Part shown: positions 934-52,424 of the stretch, in pieces
How positions within the stretch are numbered: position 1 is the first letter of the stretch
How the letters are laid out: the number at the start of each line of letters is the position of its first letter
Assembly: GCF_024298765.1 (NCBI RefSeq)
Contig: NZ_CP101210.1
Length of the DNA: 64,000 bases
From: Escherichia coli
GTDB taxonomy: Bacteria > Pseudomonadota > Gammaproteobacteria > Enterobacterales > Enterobacteriaceae
Strand: one strand, 5' to 3'
Notes under the pieces: generated by a model
What the model was told of the DNA's origin: nothing
Database searches by the model: none
Seen by the model: the letters and a program-made list of their open reading frames with translations, nothing else
Program-made: the position numbers and the translations under genes

Positions 934-1875
934 ATGGCGCACTCACACTCACACACTTCCTCACACCTGCCAGAAGATAATAATGCTCGTCGCTTGTTAT
1001 ATGCTTTCGGCGTGACTGCCGGGTTTATGCTCGTAGAAGTCATTGGTGGTTTTCTTTCCGGTTCTCTGGCATTGCTGGCCGATGCGGGTCATATGTTGAC
1101 CGATACTGCCGCCCTGCTTTTCGCCCTACTCGCAGTGCAATTTTCCCGTCGTCCTCCCACCATTCGCCACACTTTCGGTTGGCTAAGATTGACCACGCTC
1201 GCGGCGTTTGTGAATGCCATCGCCCTGGTGGTGATTACTATTTTGATTGTCTGGGAGGCGATAGAACGCTTCCGCACTCCGCGTCCGGTCGAGGGCGGCA
1301 TGATGATGGCAATTGCCGTGGCTGGGCTGCTGGCAAATATACTTTCTTTCTGGTTACTTCATCACGGCAGCGAAGAGAAAAACCTCAACGTGCGAGCAGC
1401 GGCACTGCATGTGCTCGGGGACCTGCTGGGTTCGGTTGGGGCTATTATTGCCGCGTTGATTATTATCTGGACCGGCTGGACACCTGCTGACCCCATTCTC
1501 TCAATACTGGTGTCGCTTCTGGTTCTGCGTAGCGCGTGGCGACTGTTGAAAGATAGCGTGAATGAATTACTTGAAGGTGCACCGGTATCGCTGGATATCG
1601 CCGAACTGAAGCGTCGTATGTGCCGGGAAATCCCGGAAGTCCGCAATGTGCACCATGTGCATGTATGGATGGTAGGCGAGAAGCCGGTGATGACGCTGCA
1701 TGTGCAGGTGATCCCGCCACACGATCACGATGCCTTGTTAGATCAGATCCAACACTACCTGATGGATCACTATCAGATTGAGCACGCCACTATTCAGATG
1801 GAATATCAACCTTGTCATGGGCCAGACTGCCACCTGAATGAAGGGGTGTCTGGCCATTCACATCATCACCATTAA
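934..1875 (+). CDS. zitB: Zn(II) efflux transporter, cation diffusion facilitator family
   Basis: 313-aa ORF, His-rich N- and C-termini, CDF transmembrane core; conserved position. Confidence 0.93.
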
Positions 1876-2591
1876 TGGGACAGCGCGCGTGAACCTCTTT
1901 CGCGTGCGCTGTTGATCCACATCCGGCTGCCGTTGAGGGCAATAAAGGTCAGGATGATGTACTCCAGAGACATGGCGTAAACGCCCTGAAGTGCAAAAAT
2001 AACGACGCTAATCACGTTAATAATCACCCACAACAGCCAGTTTTCCACATACTTACGCGTCATCAGAATCATTGCCACGATAGATAACACCATCATGCAT
2101 GAATCCCAGAACGGGAAAGCGTCCGGCTGTAGTTCAGGCATCGCAACCTGTAATCCTAATGCTTGCATGATCATGACTGCCACGCGGGTCAAAAATGCAA
2201 ACACCGGATTGATAAATACTGTCATCAGACCAATCGAAACAACGCAAACCGCTAACCAGCTTAGCGCCTTCGGCAATGGCAACCAGCGAATTTTCAACTC
2301 CGCCTCGTTCTGACTGGTTTGTCGCGACCACGCATACCAGCCGTAAATATTCGCGGCAAAGAAAAACACCTGTAATAGCAGGCTGGCATACAGCTGAATC
2401 TGAAAGAAAATAATGCCAAACAAGGTGACGTTGATCAGGCCAAAGAAGTAGTTGCTGATCTTCTCCAGACTGGCAAGGCCAATACACAGCAACCCGGCGA
2501 TCGTGCCTACCGCTTCGATCCATGAGAGATCATAACCGCCTGCACCTATTGGTATATGTACCAGGATATTCTGCACACTAAAAAAATCCAT
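1872..2591 (-). CDS. pnuC: Nicotinamide riboside transporter PnuC
   Basis: 239-aa polytopic membrane ORF directly downstream of nadA; 3' end overlaps the zitB stop by 4 nt (convergent). Confidence 0.93.
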
Positions 2592-2628
2592 CTTTCCCCC
2601 AAAGCGTAACGTTACGCCTTATTATTCG

Positions 2629-3672
2629 TTATCCACGTAGTGTAGCCGCAAAATCCAGCATACGATTGAGCGGCACCAGCGCCCTCTCTCGCAGCCTTTC
2701 ATCAACATGAACCTCGTGATTGCTTCCTTCCTGTTCTAATGCCTCTGCGATGGCCTGAAGGCCATTCATGGCCATCCACGGACAATGCGCGCAGCTGCGG
2801 CAGGTTGCACCCTCACCCGCGGTTGGTGCTTCCAGTAACTCTTTATCTGGCACCGCCTGCTGCATTTTGTAGAAAATGCCCCGATCGGTTGCCACGATAA
2901 GCCGCTGATGTGGCAATGTTTTCGCAGCAGCGATCAGTTGACTGGTGGAACCGACCGCATCCGCCATATCGACAATAGCTTGTGGTGATTCTGGATGCAC
3001 CAGTATGGCAGCATCCGGGTATTCTTCTTGCAAGCGGGTTAACGCCTGAGTCTTAAATTCATCATGCACAATGCAGGCACCCTGCCAGCATAAAATGTCT
3101 GCGCCCGTCTGTTTTTGCACGTAACGCCCCAGATGTTTGTCGGGTGCCCAGATGATTTTTTCACCCAAACTATCCAGATGATCAATAAGTTCGACGGCAA
3201 TGCTTGAAGTTACCACCCAATCTGCGCGCGCTTTTACCGCAGCAGAAGTGTTGGCGTAGACGACGACAGTACGATCGGGATGGGCATCGCAAAATGCGTT
3301 AAATTCTTCAACAGGGCAGCCGAGATCCAGTGAACATTCAGCCTGAAGTGTCGGCATCAGAATTGTTTTTTCCGGACTGAGAATTTTGGCGGTTTCTCCC
3401 ATAAATCTCACCCCAGCGACTAATAACGTAGAAGCGGGATGCTTTGCACCGAAGCGCGCCATTTCCAGAGAATCAGAAATACAGCCACCGGTTTCTTCTG
3501 CCAGTTGTTGAATTTCGGGATCGGTATAGTAGTGGGCAACCATCACCGCATTACGTTCTTTTAGCAGACGTTTTATCTTCTCACGGTAATACGCTTTTTC
3601 ATCAATGCTTAACGGCGTCGGCTTCGGGGGGAAAGGATAAATCGCCGTGTCTGGATCAAACATCACGCTCAT
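2629..3672 (-). CDS. nadA: Quinolinate synthase A
   Basis: 347-aa ORF with conserved Cys ligands ([10 protein letters not shown] region) of the NadA 4Fe-4S family. Confidence 0.95.
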
Positions 3673-42459: not shown

Positions 42460-43294
42460 CAGGGCAAGATTACGAAAGCCCGCTCCCCGTAAGGACTGAC
42501 GCCAGGTAGTTTCTGTCCATAGCTGCCCTTTCTATTCAAACGTGAAATCAATAAGTTCATCAGGGACATCACAAACAATATGAAGACGGGTTTCTTCTCT
42601 GCCGTGACTCTTTTCACTAATTGAGTAACTGTCGTGCTCTGGATTATTTAATTCTTTCAGCGGAAATTTTTCCTCAAAGGCTTTATTAAGCCGCCACCTG
42701 ATTTCCTTTTACAGCGAATAAATAATCACCTCCCTGTTTTTGTATCTTCTCTGCAATATCTTTCTGGCAACTCATCGCATCAGTTGTGATGATTTTTCCT
42801 TTAATATCCAGCATGTTAAGAAGTTCAGGGATAGCTGTAATTTCATTGGATTTCTCATCCGTCCTGATCTGTCCGATGACCAGACTGTGCATTGTTGAGA
42901 ACGCACTAATGACATGAATCGCTCCCCTGCGGCGACTCTTGTCATAAGAATGCCGGAGCGTTTTTCCATCAATTGCAATAACGTCTTTATCATCTGAAGA
43001 ATGGCAGTCACGCATCCAGTTAATAAAGCACTCGTGAAATTTTGAAGGACTGATACAGGATACAACTCTGGCGATGGTATCGTGAACAGGAATACCATTT
43101 TAAAAATCACCATATTGTTTTAAAAAATCGAGATGTGTTTCCCCAAAATCCTCTATATCTTCCCAACCATCTGCACCAGAAATAACGGCACAAATAGTCA
43201 ACAGTAGAATATCCGACAATTTATGTTCCACTTTTCCAGGATTGTCTGTAATCGGGAATAACAGAAATATGTTCCATCAATTTTTTAAGTACCA
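42460..43294 (-). pseudogene. H-repeat (ISAs1-family) transposase pseudogene, copy 1: internal deletion plus nonsense/frameshift
   Basis: Aligns to the intact copy at 45108-46244 but lacks about 330 bp near the 3' end, has the 1-bp insertion shared with copy 3, and a stop (ttttaaaa in place of ttttcaaa) near 43100. Confidence 0.85.
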
Positions 43295-43424
43295 TTTTGT
43301 TCTCCTTAATTATGTAAGGAGTATTTGATCATGTATAAGCAATAAAAAACAGCTTTAGGTAATGAGGAATATCTCAATTTTTAAACATAAAATGCGAATT
43401 GTCTAGTACAAAAAAGCAGCGTTA

Positions 43425-43531
43425 CGTGATCTTTCCCTGAGAGGTACAGGAACTGCGGGAGGAACTTTATCAGGTTAAACAGGGGTTAAGGGGATGCGGA
43501 ACGGGATGTTTAGTGTGCTGAACGAAAGCTA
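43425..43531 (+). pseudogene. SymE-like toxin gene remnant (internal deletion)
   Basis: Retains the leader and GTG start context and the 3' end of the intact copy at 46375-46725; central part deleted, early stop. Confidence 0.7.
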
Positions 43532-43587
43532 AATAATAAAAAAGCCGGGAAGATCTTATCTTTCCCGGCCATCTTGCCATACATTAA

Positions 43588-45030: not shown

Positions 45031-45107
45031 TTTAATAATCCAAATGTAAATTACTTAAAATACCCTCTGCCTCATTCCAGGCATTGACATGGGAACCCAG
45101 GGAAAGA

Positions 45108-46244
45108 TTACGAAAGCCCGCTCCCAGCAAGGACTGACGCCAGATAGTTTCTGTCCATGGCTGCTTTTCGCATCTTACGTCTTAACCCTGCCTTGAATAC
45201 CTTATCATTCGTCAAAATATTAATAGCGATGTGCCGTATCCCTGAAAATAATTCTGCTGCATTTCCTCTTCTTATTTTGCAGTCGTCTTCATTCATTACC
45301 ACGTCCAGACGCCAGTGCAGCTTATTCTCCACGTGCCAGTGGTTTCGGATTGCTGTGGCGAACTTCTCTGCGGTTAAATCAGCAGAACTGATATAATATC
45401 TGACCGTCATTTCTGGCTCTTTCTTTTGTTCTGCTATTATTGACCGAAAGGAGACTGCCACGCATAATTTCTTCAGACCTTTCCATTCAAACGTGAAATC
45501 AATAAGTTCATCAGGGACATCGCAAACAATATGAAGACGGATTTCTTCTCTGCCGTGACTTTTTTCACTAATTGCGTAACTGTCATGCTCTGGATTATTT
45601 AATTCTTTCAGTGGGAATTTTTCCTCAAAGGCTTTATTAAGCCGCCCCTGATTTCCTTTTACAGCGAATAAATAATCACCGCCCTGTTTTTGTATCTTCT
45701 CTGCGATATCTTTCTGGCACCCCATCGCATCAGTTGTGATAATTTTTCCTTTAATATCCAACATGTTAAGAAGTTCAGGGATAGCTGTGATCTCATTGGA
45801 TTTCTCATCCGTCCTGATCTGTCCGATGACCAGACTGTGCATTGTTGAGAACGCACTAATGACATGAATCGCTCCCCTGCGGCGACTCTTGTCATAAGAA
45901 TGCCGGAGCGTTTTTCCATCAATTGCAATAACGTCTTTATCATCTGAAGAATGGCAGTCACGCATCCAGTTAATAAAGCACTCGTGAAATTTTGCAGGAC
46001 TGATACAGGATACAACTCTGGCAATGGTATCGTGAACAGGAATACCATTTTCAAAATCACCATATTGCTTCAAAAAATCGAGATGTGTTTCCCCAAAATC
46101 CTCTATATCTTCCCAGCCTTCTGCACAAGAAATAACGGCACAAATAGTCAACAGTAGAATATCCGACAATTTATGTTCCACTTTCCAGGCTTGTCTGTAA
46201 TCGGGGATAATAGAAATATGTTCCATCAATTTTTTAAGTTCCAT
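45108..46244 (-). CDS. H-repeat-associated protein (ISAs1-family transposase), intact copy 2
   Basis: 378-aa ORF of the YhhI/YdcC/YbfD H-rpt type; element left end about 45094 (aagattacgaaagcccgc). Confidence 0.9.
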
Positions 46245-46374
46245 TTTGTTCTCCTTAATTATGTAAGGAGTATTTGACCATGTATACGCAATAAAAAACA
46301 GCTTCAGGTAATGAGGAATATCTCAATTTTTAAACATAAAATGCGAATTATTTAGTACAAAAAAGCAGCGTTAC

Positions 46375-46725
46375 GTGATCTTTCCCTGGTTAATCATGGC
46401 TGAACACGATATTACGCCAGAAATCACCATTTCCAAAACACAGCGCCGCTATAAAGTCGGCTATGTCAGAGCCCGCCACATAAACAGCAAAACCTACATG
46501 ACCACGTACTACTCACGACACCCCAGCCTGAACCTCAAGGGCGACTGGCTGAAAGAGGCCGGATTTGATACCGGGCGGGGTGTCACGGTGAAGATTTCGG
46601 AGGGGTGCCTGACCATCATCGCTGACAGTGACGAGGTGCAGGAACTGCGGGAGGAACTTTATCAGGTTAAACAGGTGGTTAAGGGGATGCGGAGCGGGAT
46701 GTTTAGTGTGCTGAACGATAATTAA
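46375..46725 (+). CDS. SymE-like toxin (AbrB/SpoVT-fold type I toxin family), intact copy
   Basis: 116-aa ORF from GTG (or 109 aa from ATG at 46396); contains the SymE-family core LKGDWLKEAGFDTGRGVTVKISEGCLTI. Confidence 0.75.
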   Translation: MIFPWLIMAEHDITPEITISKTQRRYKVGYVRARHINSKTYMTTYYSRHPSLNLKGDWLKEAGFDTGRGVTVKISEGCLTIIADSDEVQELREELYQVKQVVKGMRSGMFSVLNDN

Positions 46726-46734
46726 ATAATAAAA

Positions 46735-46765
46735 AGCCGGGAAGATTTAATTTTCTTTCCGGCTT
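46735..46765 (-). terminator. Hairpin terminator between the SymE-like gene and the immunity gene
   Basis: gccgggaaga...tctttccggc hairpin flanked by an A-run on the plus strand (U-run for the minus-strand transcript); same motif at 43540-43572 and 51983-52018. Confidence 0.55.
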
Positions 46766-46776
46766 TGTCTAATTAA

Positions 46777-47172
46777 TTATTCAGGAAATTTTCTATTTTT
46801 ATATGATGACCATAAGTGAGTGATCGACCAAGAGTTTTCCTTTCCGAGTACAAAACTTTTGGAGATTATCTCAATATCATCAGATATACGCGAAGATATT
46901 TCAGAATTATTAATCACCCTGAATGAGTATTTAAATGCCTTTTCTCGCAAGGAATCAATAAACTCAATATCATCATCCTGAAAACTTTCCTTATCTAATG
47001 AATTAAACTCACTCATCCAGCAATCATCAAACTCCGGTTCATCTCTTGAGTCTAATGCACTATCAACATTTAATGATTTAAGAAAATCAAAAAATGACGG
47101 GGTGGATAAACAGTTATCAATTTCAATTAGCTTATTATTAATCATCACATTAACCCTTGTCCTTTGAGCCAA
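46777..47172 (-). CDS. Putative Rhs-toxin immunity protein (orphan cassette 2)
   Basis: 131-aa acidic low-GC ORF immediately 3' of and overlapping the GHH-type orphan toxin. Confidence 0.6.
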   Translation of the reverse strand: MAQRTRVNVMINNKLIEIDNCLSTPSFFDFLKSLNVDSALDSRDEPEFDDCWMSEFNSLDKESFQDDDIEFIDSLREKAFKYSFRVINNSEISSRISDDIEIISKSFVLGKENSWSITHLWSSYKNRKFPE

Positions 47173-47790: not shown

Positions 47791-47802
47791 TCCAGGGCAA
47801 GA

Positions 47803-48940
47803 TTACGAAAGCCCGCACCCCGCAAGGACTGACGCCAGATAGTTTCTGTCCATGGCTGCTTTTCGCATCTTACGTCTTAACCCTGCCTTGAATACCTTAT
47901 CATTCGTCAAAATATTAATAGCGATGTGCCGTATCCCTGAAAATAATTCTGCTGCATTTCCTCTTCTTATTTTGCAGTCGTCTTCATTCATTACCACGTC
48001 CAGACGCCAGTGCAGCTTATTCTCCACGTGCCAGTGATTTCGGATCGCTGTGGCGAACTTTTCTGCGGTTAAATCAGCAGAACTGATATAATATCTGACC
48101 GTCATTTCTGGCTCTTTCTTTTGTTCTGCTATTATGGACCGAAAGGAGACTGCCACGCATAATTTCTTCAGTCCTTTCCATTCAAACGTGAAATCAATAA
48201 GTTCATCAGGGACATCACAAACAATATGAAGACGGGTTTCTTCTCTGCCGTGACTCTTTTCACTAATTGAGTAACTGTCGTGCTCTGGATTATTTAATTC
48301 TTTCAGCGGAAATTTTTCCTCAAAGGCTTTATTAAGCCGCCACCTGATTTCCTTTTACAGCGAATAAATAATCACCTCCCTGTTTTTGTATCTTCTCTGC
48401 AATATCTTTCTGGCAACTCATCGCATCAGTTGTGATGATTTTTCCTTTAATATCCAGCATGTTAAGAAGTTCAGGGATAGCTGTAATTTCATTGGATTTC
48501 TCATCCGTCCTGATCTGTCCGATGACCAGACTGTGCATTGTTGAGAACGCACTAATGACATGAATCGCTCCCCTGCGGCGACTCTTGTCATAAGAATGCC
48601 GGAGCGTTTTTCCATCAATTGCAATAACGTCTTTATCATCTGAAGAATGGCAGTCACGCATCCAGTTAATAAAGCACTCGTGAAATTTTGCAGGACTGAT
48701 ACAGGATACAACTCTGGCAATGGTATCGTGAACAGGAATACCATTTTCAAAATCACCATATTGCTTCAAAAAATCGAGATGTGTTTCCCCAAAATCCTCT
48801 ATATCTTCCCAGCCTTCTGCACCAGAAATAACGGCACAAATAGTCAACAGTAGAATATCCGACAATTTATGTTCCACTTTCCAGGCTTGTCTGTAATCGG
48901 GGACAATAGAAATATGTTCCATCAATTTTTTAAGTTCCAT
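47803..48940 (-). pseudogene. H-repeat (ISAs1-family) transposase pseudogene, copy 3 (frameshifted)
   Basis: Split into two ORFs (47803-48156 and 48332-48940) by a 1-bp insertion (aagccgccacctg versus aagccgcccctg in the intact copy). Confidence 0.85.
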
Positions 48941-49080
48941 TTTGTTCTCCTTAATTATGTAAGGAGTATTTGATCATGTATAAGCAATAAAAAACAGCTT
49001 TAGGTAATGAGGAATATCTCAAATCTTAAACATAAAATGCCAATTATTTAGTACAAAAAAGTAGCGTTACGTGATCTTTC

Positions 49081-49570
49081 CCTAAAACGCAGACCCAGTT
49101 GTGCATAGTACACATGGTACGCAACAGCCTGCGGTTCGTGACGTGGAAAGACTATAAAGCGGTAACCCGTGACCTGAAACAGGTTTACCGCGCGGCCACG
49201 GAAGAAGGCGTGTTGCAGGCGCTGGATGCGTTCGGGAAGGAATGGGATGCACGGTACCCGCAGATAAGTCGCAGCTGGCGGGCAAACTGACCGAATGTTG
49301 CCACCTTCTTCGTGTACCCGGAGGCGATCCGAAAGGTTATCTACACCACTAACGCAATCGAATCGCTGAATAGCGTCATCAGACATGCGATAAAGAAAAG
49401 GAAAGTGTTCCCGACAGATGAATCGGTGAAAAAAGTGGTGTGGCTGGCTATCCAGTCAGCCTCACAGAAATGGACGATGCCACTTCAGGACTAGCGGATA
49501 GCCATGAGTCGCTTTATTATCGAGTTCGGTGACCGCCTTGACGGTCACTTCTGAGAAAGGCATTTACACA
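49081..49570 (+). mobile_element. IS256-family (mutator-type) transposase gene remnant, 5'-truncated and frameshifted
   Basis: ORFs 49099-49290 and 49312-49494 encode the C-terminal part of an IS256-type transposase (...YPQISRSWRAN / IRKVIYTTNAIESLNSVIRHAIKKRKVFPTDESV...); begins abruptly at the shared leader sequence. Confidence 0.75.
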
Positions 49571-49619
49571 GAATGATGGACAGGCTCAACGGGAAGGCTA
49601 CATGCCTTCCCATTTTATA

Positions 49620-49946
49620 TTAATCACCCGGCTTCTCCCAACATTTTATCTTTTCTATTTCTCTCTCAATATCATCCATATCATCATCTCCAAGATCGGT
49701 ATTAAAATTTTCAGTAATAACCCTTCTTATTTCAGCCAACCGATGTGTAATATTTTTATCATCAATAAATTTAGTGGTTTCTTTAAAGTAAGAATTCAAC
49801 AATTTATCATCAATAACGTTCTGCTCTATACCATTGAAATAATACCTTGCAATATTCTTAAGTGATATCAATATGTACTCTACCTCACTTAGAATATAAA
49901 GGGCATCCTTCCCGGGTATATTAATTACATCATTGTTTTTATTCAT
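49620..49946 (-). CDS. Putative Rhs-toxin immunity protein (orphan cassette 3)
   Basis: 108-aa acidic low-GC ORF 1 nt downstream of the 601-aa orphan rhs. Confidence 0.6.
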   Translation of the reverse strand: MNKNNDVINIPGKDALYILSEVEYILISLKNIARYYFNGIEQNVIDDKLLNSYFKETTKFIDDKNITHRLAEIRRVITENFNTDLGDDDMDDIEREIEKIKCWEKPGD

Positions 49947-49947
49947 A

Positions 49948-51753
49948 TTATTTACGCCGAGTTATTTTTGCATTATCAGAAAGAACAATATCACCTTTCA
50001 CAGTCAATTCATCTATATGGTATCGAGGGTTTGTTACCCACTCTAATTGCTCGTTAGGTACATCTGTTTCCACATAATCTCTACCTTTCCCACGACCTAT
50101 TTGATATTTCGCCTCTATGTCTACTTGACTGAGTGGTTTTTTATTCGCAGGTTCCAAATATACACGACCGTTATCATGCGCCTTAATTATCCCACTTTCA
50201 GCAATCGCATTTGAACCTTTACGATTAGTATAATGCCGCACACGAGTAGTTCCATTACAGAGCTCTTTTTTTAATCCGAGTGGATCAATATATTTCAGCG
50301 GATTAGGCGCATAAGCATATAAGTTCAACCCACCCGCCAGCCCTATCGGATCCGTTACAATGAACCGCCCGACATCCGGATCATAGTACCTGTGCAGATT
50401 GTAATGCAGCCCTGTTTCCCTGTCGAGGTACTGTCCCTGGTAGCGCAGGTTCTGCTCCACCCTGCCGTGGTCCTTCTCCTGTATCGTGTTACCCCAGACC
50501 TGATACCCCGTCTCCCACACGATTTTCCCGTCACTGTCCGTCATCTCTTCCGGCGCGCCGTTCACATCCGTGTGAAAATACAGTATCCGGTTCGGGCCCT
50601 CTTTGCCCGCCTTATCCACCCGCGCCAGCGGTTCATAACTCCCCGGGTCCCTGTAGATGTACAGGCTGTCTGTTCCCTCCGGCCTGCTCTCCTGCGCCAG
50701 CCGCATTCCGTCCCATAAAAATGCCGTCCGGTTGTACGGTTTACCGTCAGGGCTGATGTGCTGTTTTTCCGTCCGCCTCCCCAGCGCATCGTACACATAC
50801 CGGTACGTTCCCCGCGCTGTCGTCACTTCCACCATCCGGTGTTCCGCATCATAACGGTAACTCTGCGTGCCGCTCCGCCCCTCCTTTTCCACCGCACGGC
50901 CAAATTCGTCGTAACGGTAGTGCACACCACGGTAAGACATCAGCCGGTTGAACGGCACCACGCTGTTTTCTGCCGTGGCCCTTTCCCCCGCGCGCCGCCC
51001 CAGCAGGTTTCCCGCCGCGTCGTACTGCCAGCTCGCCAGATACCCCTCATCCTCCGAGCGGCACGCCGTGATGCGCCCCGTGGGGTCGTAGAAGTAATCC
51101 GTTTCCCCCCGCCGGCTGTGCCGCGTCTTCAGCAGTTCATCCTCGCCACTGTAGCTGTACTGCCGGTCCGTGAACGTCTCCGGTACCACCCCGCGCATCC
51201 CGCTGTATGTCTCCCTGCGCTTCAGCCGCCCGGCGGGGTCGTAAAGCTGCCGCGTGCTCAGTCGCCCCTGACTTCTGAGCACTTCACGGTGCAGGGCGTC
51301 ACGAGTGAACTCGCTGATGACCTCCCGGTCCAGATTTATCTGCTGGAGATGGCCGCTGCCGTAGTACAGATGACGCTGCGTTCTGCCGTCCGGAAAGGTG
51401 GTGGCTGTCCGGTTGCTGAGTTCATCGTACTGATGGGTCAGGACGCCCTGCGCCGTCTCCTCAGTCAGCATCCGCCCCAGTCTGTCGTAACTGAAACGGA
51501 TAATCTCCGGTGCGTCTGTTTCCCCGGCATCCGACCGTCGGCGGCGGATTTCCAGTAACTGGTCTGCCGCATCATGGACGTATTCCGTACGGCTATCGGC
51601 TGTCTCCTTTGCCGTGAGCCGGCCCGCCGCATCACGTGCCAGCCGGTGGCGGATTTCACCGCCCCGGTCCCCGGTGAACACCACTTCCGTGACCGCGTTC
51701 AGCGCGTTGTAGCGGTACGTCTGGCGGCAGCCGTCGTGCTGCCAGCGCAGCAT
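49948..51753 (-). CDS. Orphan rhs fragment: about 480 aa of Rhs core plus a distinct C-terminal toxin domain
   Basis: YD-repeat core near-identical to the main rhs, then DPIGLAGG...DPLGL and a unique roughly 108-aa tail (KKELCNGTTRVRHYTNRKGSNAIAESGII...); rhs homology starts at DGCRQTYRY, so the track Met is fortuitous. Confidence 0.8.
   Translation of the reverse strand: MLRWQHDGCRQTYRYNALNAVTEVVFTGDRGGEIRHRLARDAAGRLTAKETADSRTEYVHDAADQLLEIRRRRSDAGETDAPEIIRFSYDRLGRMLTEETAQGVLTHQYDELSNRTATTFPDGRTQRHLYYGSGHLQQINLDREVISEFTRDALHREVLRSQGRLSTRQLYDPAGRLKRRETYSGMRGVVPETFTDRQYSYSGEDELLKTRHSRRGETDYFYDPTGRITACRSEDEGYLASWQYDAAGNLLGRRAGERATAENSVVPFNRLMSYRGVHYRYDEFGRAVEKEGRSGTQSYRYDAEHRMVEVTTARGTYRYVYDALGRRTEKQHISPDGKPYNRTAFLWDGMRLAQESRPEGTDSLYIYRDPGSYEPLARVDKAGKEGPNRILYFHTDVNGAPEEMTDSDGKIVWETGYQVWGNTIQEKDHGRVEQNLRYQGQYLDRETGLHYNLHRYYDPDVGRFIVTDPIGLAGGLNLYAYAPNPLKYIDPLGLKKELCNGTTRVRHYTNRKGSNAIAESGIIKAHDNGRVYLEPANKKPLSQVDIEAKYQIGRGKGRDYVETDVPNEQLEWVTNPRYHIDELTVKGDIVLSDNAKITRRK
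50362..51735. repeat. 1.37-kb direct repeat, copy A (orphan rhs core)
   Basis: Essentially identical to 52880-54253 (offset 2518 bp); the antisense track ORFs 50392-50718 and 50758-51558 recur identically at 52910-53236 and 53276-54076. Confidence 0.9.
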
Positions 51754-51774
51754 CTGCCCAACCGCAGCGACACG

Positions 51775-51978
51775 CCGGTGATCAAAATCAGCGCCAAATG
51801 GCTGAGAGAAGCGGGATTTGAGATCGGCACGGGCGTTACCGTGAAGATCTCGGAAGGCTGCCTGATCCTGCTTGCAGATAACAACGGAGTACAGGAACTG
51901 CGCAGGGAACTTTATCAGGTTAAACAGTCTGTTAAGGGGATGCGGAACGGGATGTTTAGTATGCTGAACGATAATTAA
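51775..51978 (+). pseudogene. SymE-like toxin gene 3' fragment
   Basis: Encodes ...IKISAKWLREAGFEIGTGVTVKISEGCLILLADNNGVQELRRELYQVKQSVKGMRNGMFSMLNDN; 5' part replaced by the orphan rhs junction. Confidence 0.7.
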
Positions 51979-52043
51979 ATAATAAAAAGCCGGGAAGATT
52001 TAATTTCTTACCCGGCTTTTGATAACTTAATAATATTATAATC

Positions 52044-52424
52044 CTAAATCAATCTTTTTTTTAATTCCCTTATTTCAGGAGTTAATGCAAAACTGTCTTC
52101 TAAAGATTCGTCATCCAAGGCCCAGTAATTAATAAGATCTATATGATTTTTATAATTATCAAGCAGAGTGTTGAGTGCTTTTACAATAACTTTATCTGAA
52201 GGAGGTACTCCAGAAGATAATAAATCATTACAGACATCAAGGGCTAAAGTCATTAATTCATTCTTCCCTTTTTGTGAGTAGCCATTATTTAAATATGCAG
52301 CAATATATTTACTTAACCACTCTTTAGTTCGATATTTTTCAGGCAGTTCATAAGCCCAATCTTGTGTAAACTTATCACTCACTGGTACACCAAGTTCACT
52401 ACAGATTTTATCTATTTCATTCAT
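52044..52424 (-). CDS. Putative immunity protein for the main Rhs toxin
   Basis: 126-aa low-GC ORF 18 nt downstream of the main rhs stop. Confidence 0.65.
   Translation of the reverse strand: MNEIDKICSELGVPVSDKFTQDWAYELPEKYRTKEWLSKYIAAYLNNGYSQKGKNELMTLALDVCNDLLSSGVPPSDKVIVKALNTLLDNYKNHIDLINYWALDDESLEDSFALTPEIRELKKRLI

Follow-up and report, generated by a model that had tools for sequence, protein, structure and literature searches.

Genes of the SymE family near RHS genes were already shown by Kawano, Aravind and Storz in 2007 (their Fig. 7; PMC1891008). The Rhs elements of E. coli also harbor H-rpt/ISEc1, an element of 1,291 bp with CAGGG termini and a 378-aa transposase. In the IS256 family, an unnamed 1,314-bp element of Enterobacteriaceae is 96.6-97.4% identical to the whole of the remnant described here and has the same right repeat and the same frame; it also sits beside hsp20 genes on the E. 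coli chromosome and on many plasmids. IS1414, an IS256-family element of E. coli and the nearest one with a name in RefSeq, is about 80% identical in nucleotide sequence over 49095-49588 and was rejected as the parent because this level of identity is too low. Here we describe an IS256-family remnant in a 64,000-nucleotide stretch of E. coli DNA (contig NZ_CP101210.1), the whole of which is referred to as the window. We consider it quite likely that this remnant is a dead fossil in an rhsC array, left by the history proposed below; that is, a cassette with a SymE-like neighbor would have received an IS256 insertion, which H-rpt would then have truncated.

The window corresponds to the E. coli rhsC region, an array of Rhs toxin/immunity cassettes. 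Its H-rpt elements are placed between Rhs cassettes beside ybgA-phrB, which is also their position in the K-12 rhsC locus. Bases 48900-49650 are matched at 100% coverage by 72 complete E. coli genomes, for example that of strain 104 (NZ_CP029164), in which the RefSeq annotation gives the order of the genes along the minus strand, in the leftward direction. The first group is a full-length RHS gene, the corresponding immunity gene and a SymE-family gene. Next are an orphan RHS fragment plus immunity gene, the remnant, annotated as a 'transposase' pseudogene, and a frameshifted ISAs1-family transposase. A further RHS tip plus immunity gene, a SymE-family gene and an intact ISEc1 come thereafter, and the series closes with an HNH toxin and its immunity gene, followed by ybfD, ybgA and phrB.

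The remnant adjoins the orphan cassette. The Rhs fragment of this cassette (49948-51753, minus strand; recognized by NCBIfam RHS_core and Rhs_assc_core) comprises the 3' part of the core and a Tox-ART-HYD1 ADP-ribosyltransferase toxin tip (49948-50400); RefSeq labels it 'RHS repeat-associated core... missing N-terminus' and annotates the HYD1 ADP-ribosyltransferase. In the list of open reading frames the immunity gene, encoding 108 aa, is found at 49620-49946 on the minus strand, and homologues of its product adjoin Tox-ART-HYD1 Rhs tips. Between the immunity gene and the IS256 end, a terminator scan detected a hairpin terminator at 49591-49611. The ART-HYD1 cassette is rare: it was found in 72 of the 5,426 complete E. 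coli genomes used as the base of our counts, many of them poultry-derived, and all 72 hold the same remnant and H-rpt in the same structure. That the cassette always comes with both speaks for a single ancestral event, after which the composite would have been passed on as one unit to each cassette-bearing genome.

Variants of the locus were also seen. One E. coli assembly has a 48-bp in-frame deletion in the immunity gene (window 49768-49803), which leaves 92 of the 108 aa, the locus being identical in all else; an 85%-identical immunity protein was rejected as an informative variant because it comes from the same locus with this deletion. In E. coli MDR_56 (NZ_CP019903), IS50R interrupts the right inverted repeat of the remnant. 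In the same strain the orphan ART-HYD1 Rhs fragment belongs to a full-length RHS gene; therefore, the upstream cassette was lost there by recombination between core repeats.

A preliminary description of the locus had reported the remnant of an IS256/Mutator-type transposase at 49081-49570, with the C-terminal half of the protein in two short ORFs. The nature of the remnant is confirmed by our searches, with matches well above anything that chance would give. The ORFs at 49099-49290 and 49312-49494 each match Pfam PF00872, Transposase_mut (Mutator family), with an E-value of 6e-12, over positions 253-313 and 324-377 of the 379 in the profile, and blastn with the complete 1,314-bp element gave a single match within the window, an ungapped alignment of 501 bases with 96.6% identity. 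No other piece of the parent IS was found elsewhere in the window with this query. The remnant thus occupies 49087-49587 (plus strand), its 30-nt right repeat included, and corresponds to nucleotides 814-1314 of the 1,314 bp of the parent. Its translation is 92% identical, by tblastn, to the 402-aa parent transposase WP_049043034, which itself scores 404 bits on the IS256-family model NCBIfam NF033543 (cut-off 150); homology to the IS256/Mutator family is found directly with PF00872 and, by way of the parent, with NF033543. A complete copy of the parent, of 1,314 bp, lies at 1688-3001 of the Citrobacter freundii plasmid NZ_CP048383, where 30-nt inverted repeats at 1688-1717 and 2972-3001 flank WP_049043034. 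E. coli genomes and plasmids hold DNA that is 96-97% identical and annotated as 'IS256 family transposase'. Both a near-complete copy of the parent on an E. coli chromosome and the complete copy on the Citrobacter plasmid adjoin hsp20 small heat-shock and HTH genes, a neighborhood that may be the edge of a heat-resistance island.

The parent IS and the missing length, which the preliminary description had left to a database search, are thereby established: the parent is an IS256-family element of 1,314 bp, and its first 813 bp are missing. The protein fragment is indeed C-terminal and yet short of a half, with residues 248-402 of 402, or 39% of the protein, from the last 38% of the element. 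Both ORFs belong to one pseudogene in a single frame (49087-49554, plus strand; PF00872 and alignment to WP_049043034), which is split by nonsense codons and not by a frameshift. Two Trp codons were turned into stops, TGG to TGA at 49288-49290 and TGG to TAG at 49492-49494, upstream of the natural stop at 49552-49554. Of the terminal inverted repeats that the same description proposed to look for, the right one is present at 49558-49587 (30 nt, AGGCATTTACACAGAATGATGGACAGGCTC), as located from the repeat pair of the complete copy. Homology ends with ...GGACAGGCTC (GGCTC) at 49587, which is the tip of this repeat, and the copies diverge thereafter in a four-way alignment; the right flank of the remnant reads AACGGGAAG. 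The left inverted repeat was found nowhere in the window, and one repeat is therefore all that the remnant offers of the pair that marks an IS256 element.

What has been deleted is the left end of the IS256 element together with its flank. The absent nucleotides 1-813 comprise the left inverted repeat, the promoter and the codons for residues 1-247; at 501 bp, the remnant of the 1,314-bp parent is well below the length of about 1.2-1.5 kb of IS256 elements. Likewise, the catalytic DDE core is incomplete, with residues 248-402 only and two nonsense codons. We take ACVDGLKG, just upstream of the break, to be the second catalytic aspartate motif, and what we assume to be the CxxH motif and the NAIESLN motif (with the Glu) are retained. 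Both catalytic aspartates and the N-terminal DNA-binding part are gone. Because the left repeat, 813 bp and both aspartates have been lost, the remnant is dead; it provides no active transposase and no mobilization is possible. Judged by its sequence, it is a fragment of the IS256 family by descent and not a functional member. RefSeq already labels it a transposase pseudogene ('internal stop; incomplete; missing N-terminus'; 72 genomes). A search of the remnant itself against Rfam gave no matches and, the hairpin aside, a promoter and terminator scan gave no signal above shuffled expectation.

In the rest of the array, the place downstream of the immunity gene belongs to SymE-like sequence. 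Each of the other three window cassettes has, after the immunity gene, a conserved terminator and a convergent SymE-like gene, whose 3' end faces the immunity gene. A tblastn search with the window SymE-like protein matches 46396-46722, 51766-51975 and 43441-43529. The first match is a full-length gene encoding 109 aa (46396-46725, plus strand; RefSeq, PRK13605 and tblastn), which scores 50 bits on the PRK13605 SymE equivalog model. Because the cut-off of this model is 132 bits, the SymE-like proteins of the window are family members and not SymE proper. The second is a 5'-truncated gene with residues about 40-109 (51766-51975, plus strand; RefSeq and tblastn) that abuts the orphan Rhs fragment, H-rpt not being involved. 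The third is a 3' remnant of about residues 80-109, i.e., the last ~30 codons (43441-43529, plus strand; tblastn), which directly abuts the end of H-rpt copy 1. In 49085-49620, the interval of the IS256 remnant, tblastn with the window SymE-like protein detected no SymE-like (PF08845, SymE_toxin) sequence.

The SymE-like 3' ends and the terminator (AAAAAGCCGGGAAGAT...) are conserved at 43441-43560, 46636-46770 and 51890-52020, and the adjacent convergent immunity genes are unrelated. Because the 3' ends are conserved beside unrelated immunity genes, the SymE-like sequence seems to move along with Rhs toxin/immunity cassettes as their downstream flank. These genes are also overlapped by matches to RNA families. 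With 117.6 bits, against a gathering score of 51, the Rfam family isrA (RF01385) matches 46467-46595 on the minus strand, in antisense orientation to the SymE-like ORF 46396-46725, and a weaker match is found at 51748-51848, also on the minus strand; this suggests that the SymE-like genes at the ends of Rhs cassettes have an antisense partner of the IsrA type. IsrA of Salmonella is a cis-antisense RNA; its target, STM0294.1n, is described as having 'no clear functional annotation', and the two are inversely expressed (PMC2330248). A literature search returned no paper connecting IsrA to SymE. On the minus strand, Rfam Ssr1 (RF02627, Shigella small RNA 1) is partially matched at 51714-52075, 46426-46818 and 43402-43575, with scores far short of the gathering score; in these three cassettes, the matches extend over the SymE-like gene and across the spacer that separates it from the immunity gene.

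Relatives of the orphan cassette in other genera were compared at the same position. Its immunity protein is rare, and the closest proteins outside E. coli are those of Citrobacter portucalensis (80% identity) and Pseudescherichia (79%). The Citrobacter cassette, which consists of a Tox-ART-HYD1 tip and the immunity gene, shares the hairpin (CGGGAAGG-loop-CCTTCCCG), and a convergent PF08845 SymE_toxin gene ends there with its stop codon about 25 bp past the hairpin. This slot just past the hairpin is the one taken by the IS256 end in E. coli. A Photorhabdus cassette has the same SymE arrangement, followed by a cHTH gene and a primase, and one E. coli Rhs end has the same SymE, HTH and primase neighbors. 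The Pantoea and Pseudescherichia relatives have orphan Rhs fragments in the slot, and not SymE. By analogy with the cassettes that do have it, a SymE-like gene was probably once present at the position of the remnant; its loss is plausible, and it is the arrangement of these other cassettes from which we infer it.

Conversely, there may never have been a SymE-like gene in this place, if the cassette came into E. coli, for instance from a plasmid, with an IS256-family element or fragment already beside it, and H-rpt cut the latter afterwards. Copies of the parent IS with 96-97% identity abound on Enterobacteriaceae plasmids, which would suit such an origin, as would the related Pantoea and Pseudescherichia cassettes without a SymE neighbor, the lack of any SymE trace in 49085-49620 and the fact that no SymE-bearing allele was found in E. 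coli. However, the closest ortholog outside E. coli, that of Citrobacter with its 80%-identical immunity protein and the same hairpin, has SymE right after the hairpin, and all three other cassettes of the window have SymE-like sequence in the equivalent place. We therefore favor the former presence of a SymE-like gene and regard the arrival of an IS256-flanked cassette as unlikely. As to the truncated SymE-like gene on the other side of the cassette, a model with cassette 2 inserted between an end of H-rpt and codon 40 of this gene (at 51766) was set aside for ordinary C-terminal displacement. Under displacement, a cassette would bring its own downstream flank, and the Citrobacter SymE gene indeed follows this cassette's own hairpin.

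The left side of the remnant is defined by H-rpt, of which there are three copies in direct orientation. Copy 2 (45098-46388, minus strand) is intact, with 1,291 bp between its terminal inverted repeats; it is annotated in RefSeq as 'ISAs1-like element ISEc1 family transposase' and served as the reference for the IS ends. Its transposase scores 412 bits on NF033564 (ISAs1 family; cut-off 70) and carries the PGAP name ISEc1, and is thus of the ISAs1 type. Copy 1, ybfD-type, is internally deleted and 980 bp long (42460-43439, minus strand; alignment and termini). Copy 3 (47793-49084, minus strand; 1,292 bp), for which both termini were located, aligns to copy 2 over its full length and has a 1-bp frameshifting insertion; in RefSeq, it is an 'ISAs1 family transposase, frameshifted'. 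We take this ISAs1-family element to be the classical H-rpt of Rhs elements, of which ybfD, ybfL and ydcC are presumably the K-12 examples. All three copies have the same inverted-repeat pair, beginning with CAGGG, namely CAGGG(A/C)AAGATTACG with CGTGATCTTTCCCTG. The partner ends start at 42460, 45098 and 47793, and intact ends are 1,291 bp apart. At the other side, the three copies are near-identical up to ...GCGTTACGTGATCTTTCCCT(G/A), where they end at 43439, 46388 and 49084, and there is no likeness beyond. That is, the shared terminus ...GATCTTTCCCT(G/A) is followed by complete divergence in all three copies; the last base of copy 3 is A in place of G.

The cut left end of the remnant lies within 3 bp of the outer terminus of copy 3. 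The three bases at the junction, AAA at 49084-49086, are assignable to neither element in the alignments: the H-rpt terminus normally has G at 49084, and the IS256 parent reads GAG. It could be argued that the truncation had nothing to do with the H-rpt transposase, and that an illegitimate deletion, or the end of imported DNA, fell at the H-rpt terminus by chance; the AAA is an imperfect junction for both elements, with the terminal G of H-rpt replaced by A. Yet the breakpoint is within 3 bp of the defined terminus of a 1.3-kb IS, which argues for a transposase-defined end and not a random deletion, and all three H-rpt termini abut unrelated DNA, the signature of such ends. A chance coincidence is thus very unlikely.

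No target-site duplication was found around any of the three H-rpt copies, also when flanks were matched across copies, which fits later recombination or deletion and not fresh insertions. The copies are moreover mosaic. At 16 of 16 informative sites in alignment columns 498-769, copy 3 groups with copy 1, and at 12 of 14 in columns 972-1218 it groups with copy 2. Because the informative sites form such blocks, the alignment clearly indicates that recombination or gene conversion among the H-rpt copies has occurred. In addition, copy 3 has 4-5 private substitutions in its last 45 bp and 2 in all the rest.

Assignment of the junction to an IS end also bears on the preliminary description, which had taken the sequence upstream of the remnant for the leader of a SymE gene, repeated three times, and had proposed that an IS fragment replaced the coding sequence through successive rearrangements at the boundary between the two. 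The three upstream copies do exist and do diverge at the start of the remnant, as the alignment bears out, and SymE-like coding sequence follows two of them. The 'conserved leader', however, is the 144 bp at 48941-49084 between the ATG of the H-rpt transposase (48940) and the terminus. It is the transposase-proximal end of H-rpt/ISEc1, a 1,291-bp element of the ISAs1 family; it is continuous with the transposase gene and ends in an inverted repeat. Because the 'leader' is the outer end of H-rpt, the abrupt start of the remnant is simply the H-rpt terminus. Nor do the other two copies continue into SymE at a common point: 7 bp (GTTAATC) separate the end of copy 2 from the SymE-like ATG at 46396, whereas copy 1 directly abuts the last ~30 codons of another SymE-like gene, from about codon 80. 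Instead of one junction that was rearranged repeatedly, there are three different junctions between an IS end and its flank. Finally, what lies upstream of native SymE-like genes at Rhs ends is an HTH regulator gene and not the 144-bp sequence. Thus, the explanation as originally stated is refuted by the identity of the 144 bp as an IS end, and we give it almost no credence. What survives of the proposed replacement is the slot, which is occupied by SymE-like sequence in the sister cassettes, in Citrobacter and in Photorhabdus; the loss of the gene from this slot is a matter of analogy and not of observation. At 46389-46398, an H-rpt end has replaced the native upstream region of the SymE-like ORF, where the HTH regulator gene is found elsewhere.

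A function of the remnant, for instance as a truncated transposase that was domesticated, as a regulator or through an outward promoter that serves neighboring genes, has a negligible probability. Its conservation at 99% or above in 71 genomes is that of close relatives. It has two in-frame nonsense codons and no start context, lacks the N-terminal DNA-binding part as well as both catalytic aspartates, is at shuffled expectation in the promoter scan and, in one strain, contains IS50R with no apparent consequence.

The history that we favor would comprise four steps. The cassette would once have had a convergent SymE-like gene downstream, as in Citrobacter and the three sister cassettes. A complete IS256-family element would then have inserted between the hairpin and this gene; the right end of IS256 is 2-3 bp from the hairpin stem, and the hairpin at 49591-49611 marks the original insertion site. 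Subsequently, an event dependent on the H-rpt transposase would have joined the H-rpt terminus to nucleotide 814 of IS256. This may have happened in either of two ways. H-rpt may have inserted into IS256, the left half of which was then lost, together with all that lay between, by homologous recombination with another, directly repeated H-rpt copy; alternatively, a resident H-rpt may have made an adjacent deletion into IS256. Either route would have removed nucleotides 1-813 of IS256 together with the SymE-like gene, and the data fit both. The private terminal block of copy 3 mildly favors the first route, because this terminal segment suggests a different H-rpt lineage. Last, the pseudogene would have gained its two nonsense mutations. 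Against this history speak the three junction bases, which match neither element exactly, the lack of SymE-like sequence in 49085-49620, the Pantoea and Pseudescherichia relatives without SymE and the negative outcome of the searches for intermediates.

Intermediates of these events were looked for in several collections. A synthetic 408-nt query representing the reciprocal junction, with the 5' half of IS256 and the other H-rpt end, found 0 places with at least 80% query coverage in the 5,426 complete E. coli genomes. Among the 72 E. coli genomes with the cassette, none has SymE or a full-length IS256 beside this immunity gene, and no ancestral allele appeared in a scan of species-representative genomes with a peptide pattern of the immunity protein. 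The exact hairpin pattern gave no match in genome contigs and one contig in metagenomes. At 97.8% identity and with another chromosomal context, this contig resembled an independent copy but was rejected as such. Across the cassette and the remnant it differs from the window by one base, all other differences being in the H-rpt part, and its distant flank matches, at 100% identity, a further locus with H-rpt from the same E. coli background. For these reasons it is probably an assembly join across a repeat, or a trivial recombinant, and was not counted as evidence.

A wider reading can be entertained, with considerable reserve: the H-rpt/IS256 junction, the absence of target duplications and the mosaic copies could together record a natural reshaping of Rhs arrays by H-rpt/ISEc1, in which a SymE-like boundary travels with the cassettes. 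Such a boundary would tentatively consist of the convergent SymE-like gene, the IsrA-type antisense RNA and the shared terminator, and it might serve as downstream homology for cassette exchange. The site of the remnant would then be, somewhat speculatively, a place where the boundary was destroyed.

On the history that we favor, in which IS256 inserted beside a SymE-like gene and was truncated by H-rpt, the remnant itself is the product of the ordinary decay of mobile DNA. Its value is modest and lies in its use as a historical marker, which orders two events in one orphan Rhs cassette, the IS256 insertion before the H-rpt truncation. Showing that the repeated 'SymE leader' is an IS end prevents a mis-annotation. 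Beyond this, the locus points to SymE-like genes as recurrent downstream neighbors of Rhs cassettes, an association noted already in 2007.

Compared with the known systems, everything at this locus is of a known kind, i.e., an IS256-family fragment, H-rpt/ISEc1, orphan Rhs cassettes and SymE-family genes by RHS genes. With respect to the typical H-rpt there is nothing unusual, except that copy 3 is frameshifted and copy 1 internally deleted. In contrast to the 1,314-bp IS256-family element, the window copy is without nucleotides 1-813 and has two nonsense mutations. As to the SymE/SymR type I toxin-antitoxin system and the SymE-family genes near RHS (PMC1891008), the corresponding genes are convergent with Rhs immunity genes here, in Citrobacter, in Photorhabdus and in other E. 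coli, and some of these SymE loci also have the cHTH gene and the primase seen in that work; it is the remnant interval at 49085-49620, without SymE-like sequence, that differs from them.
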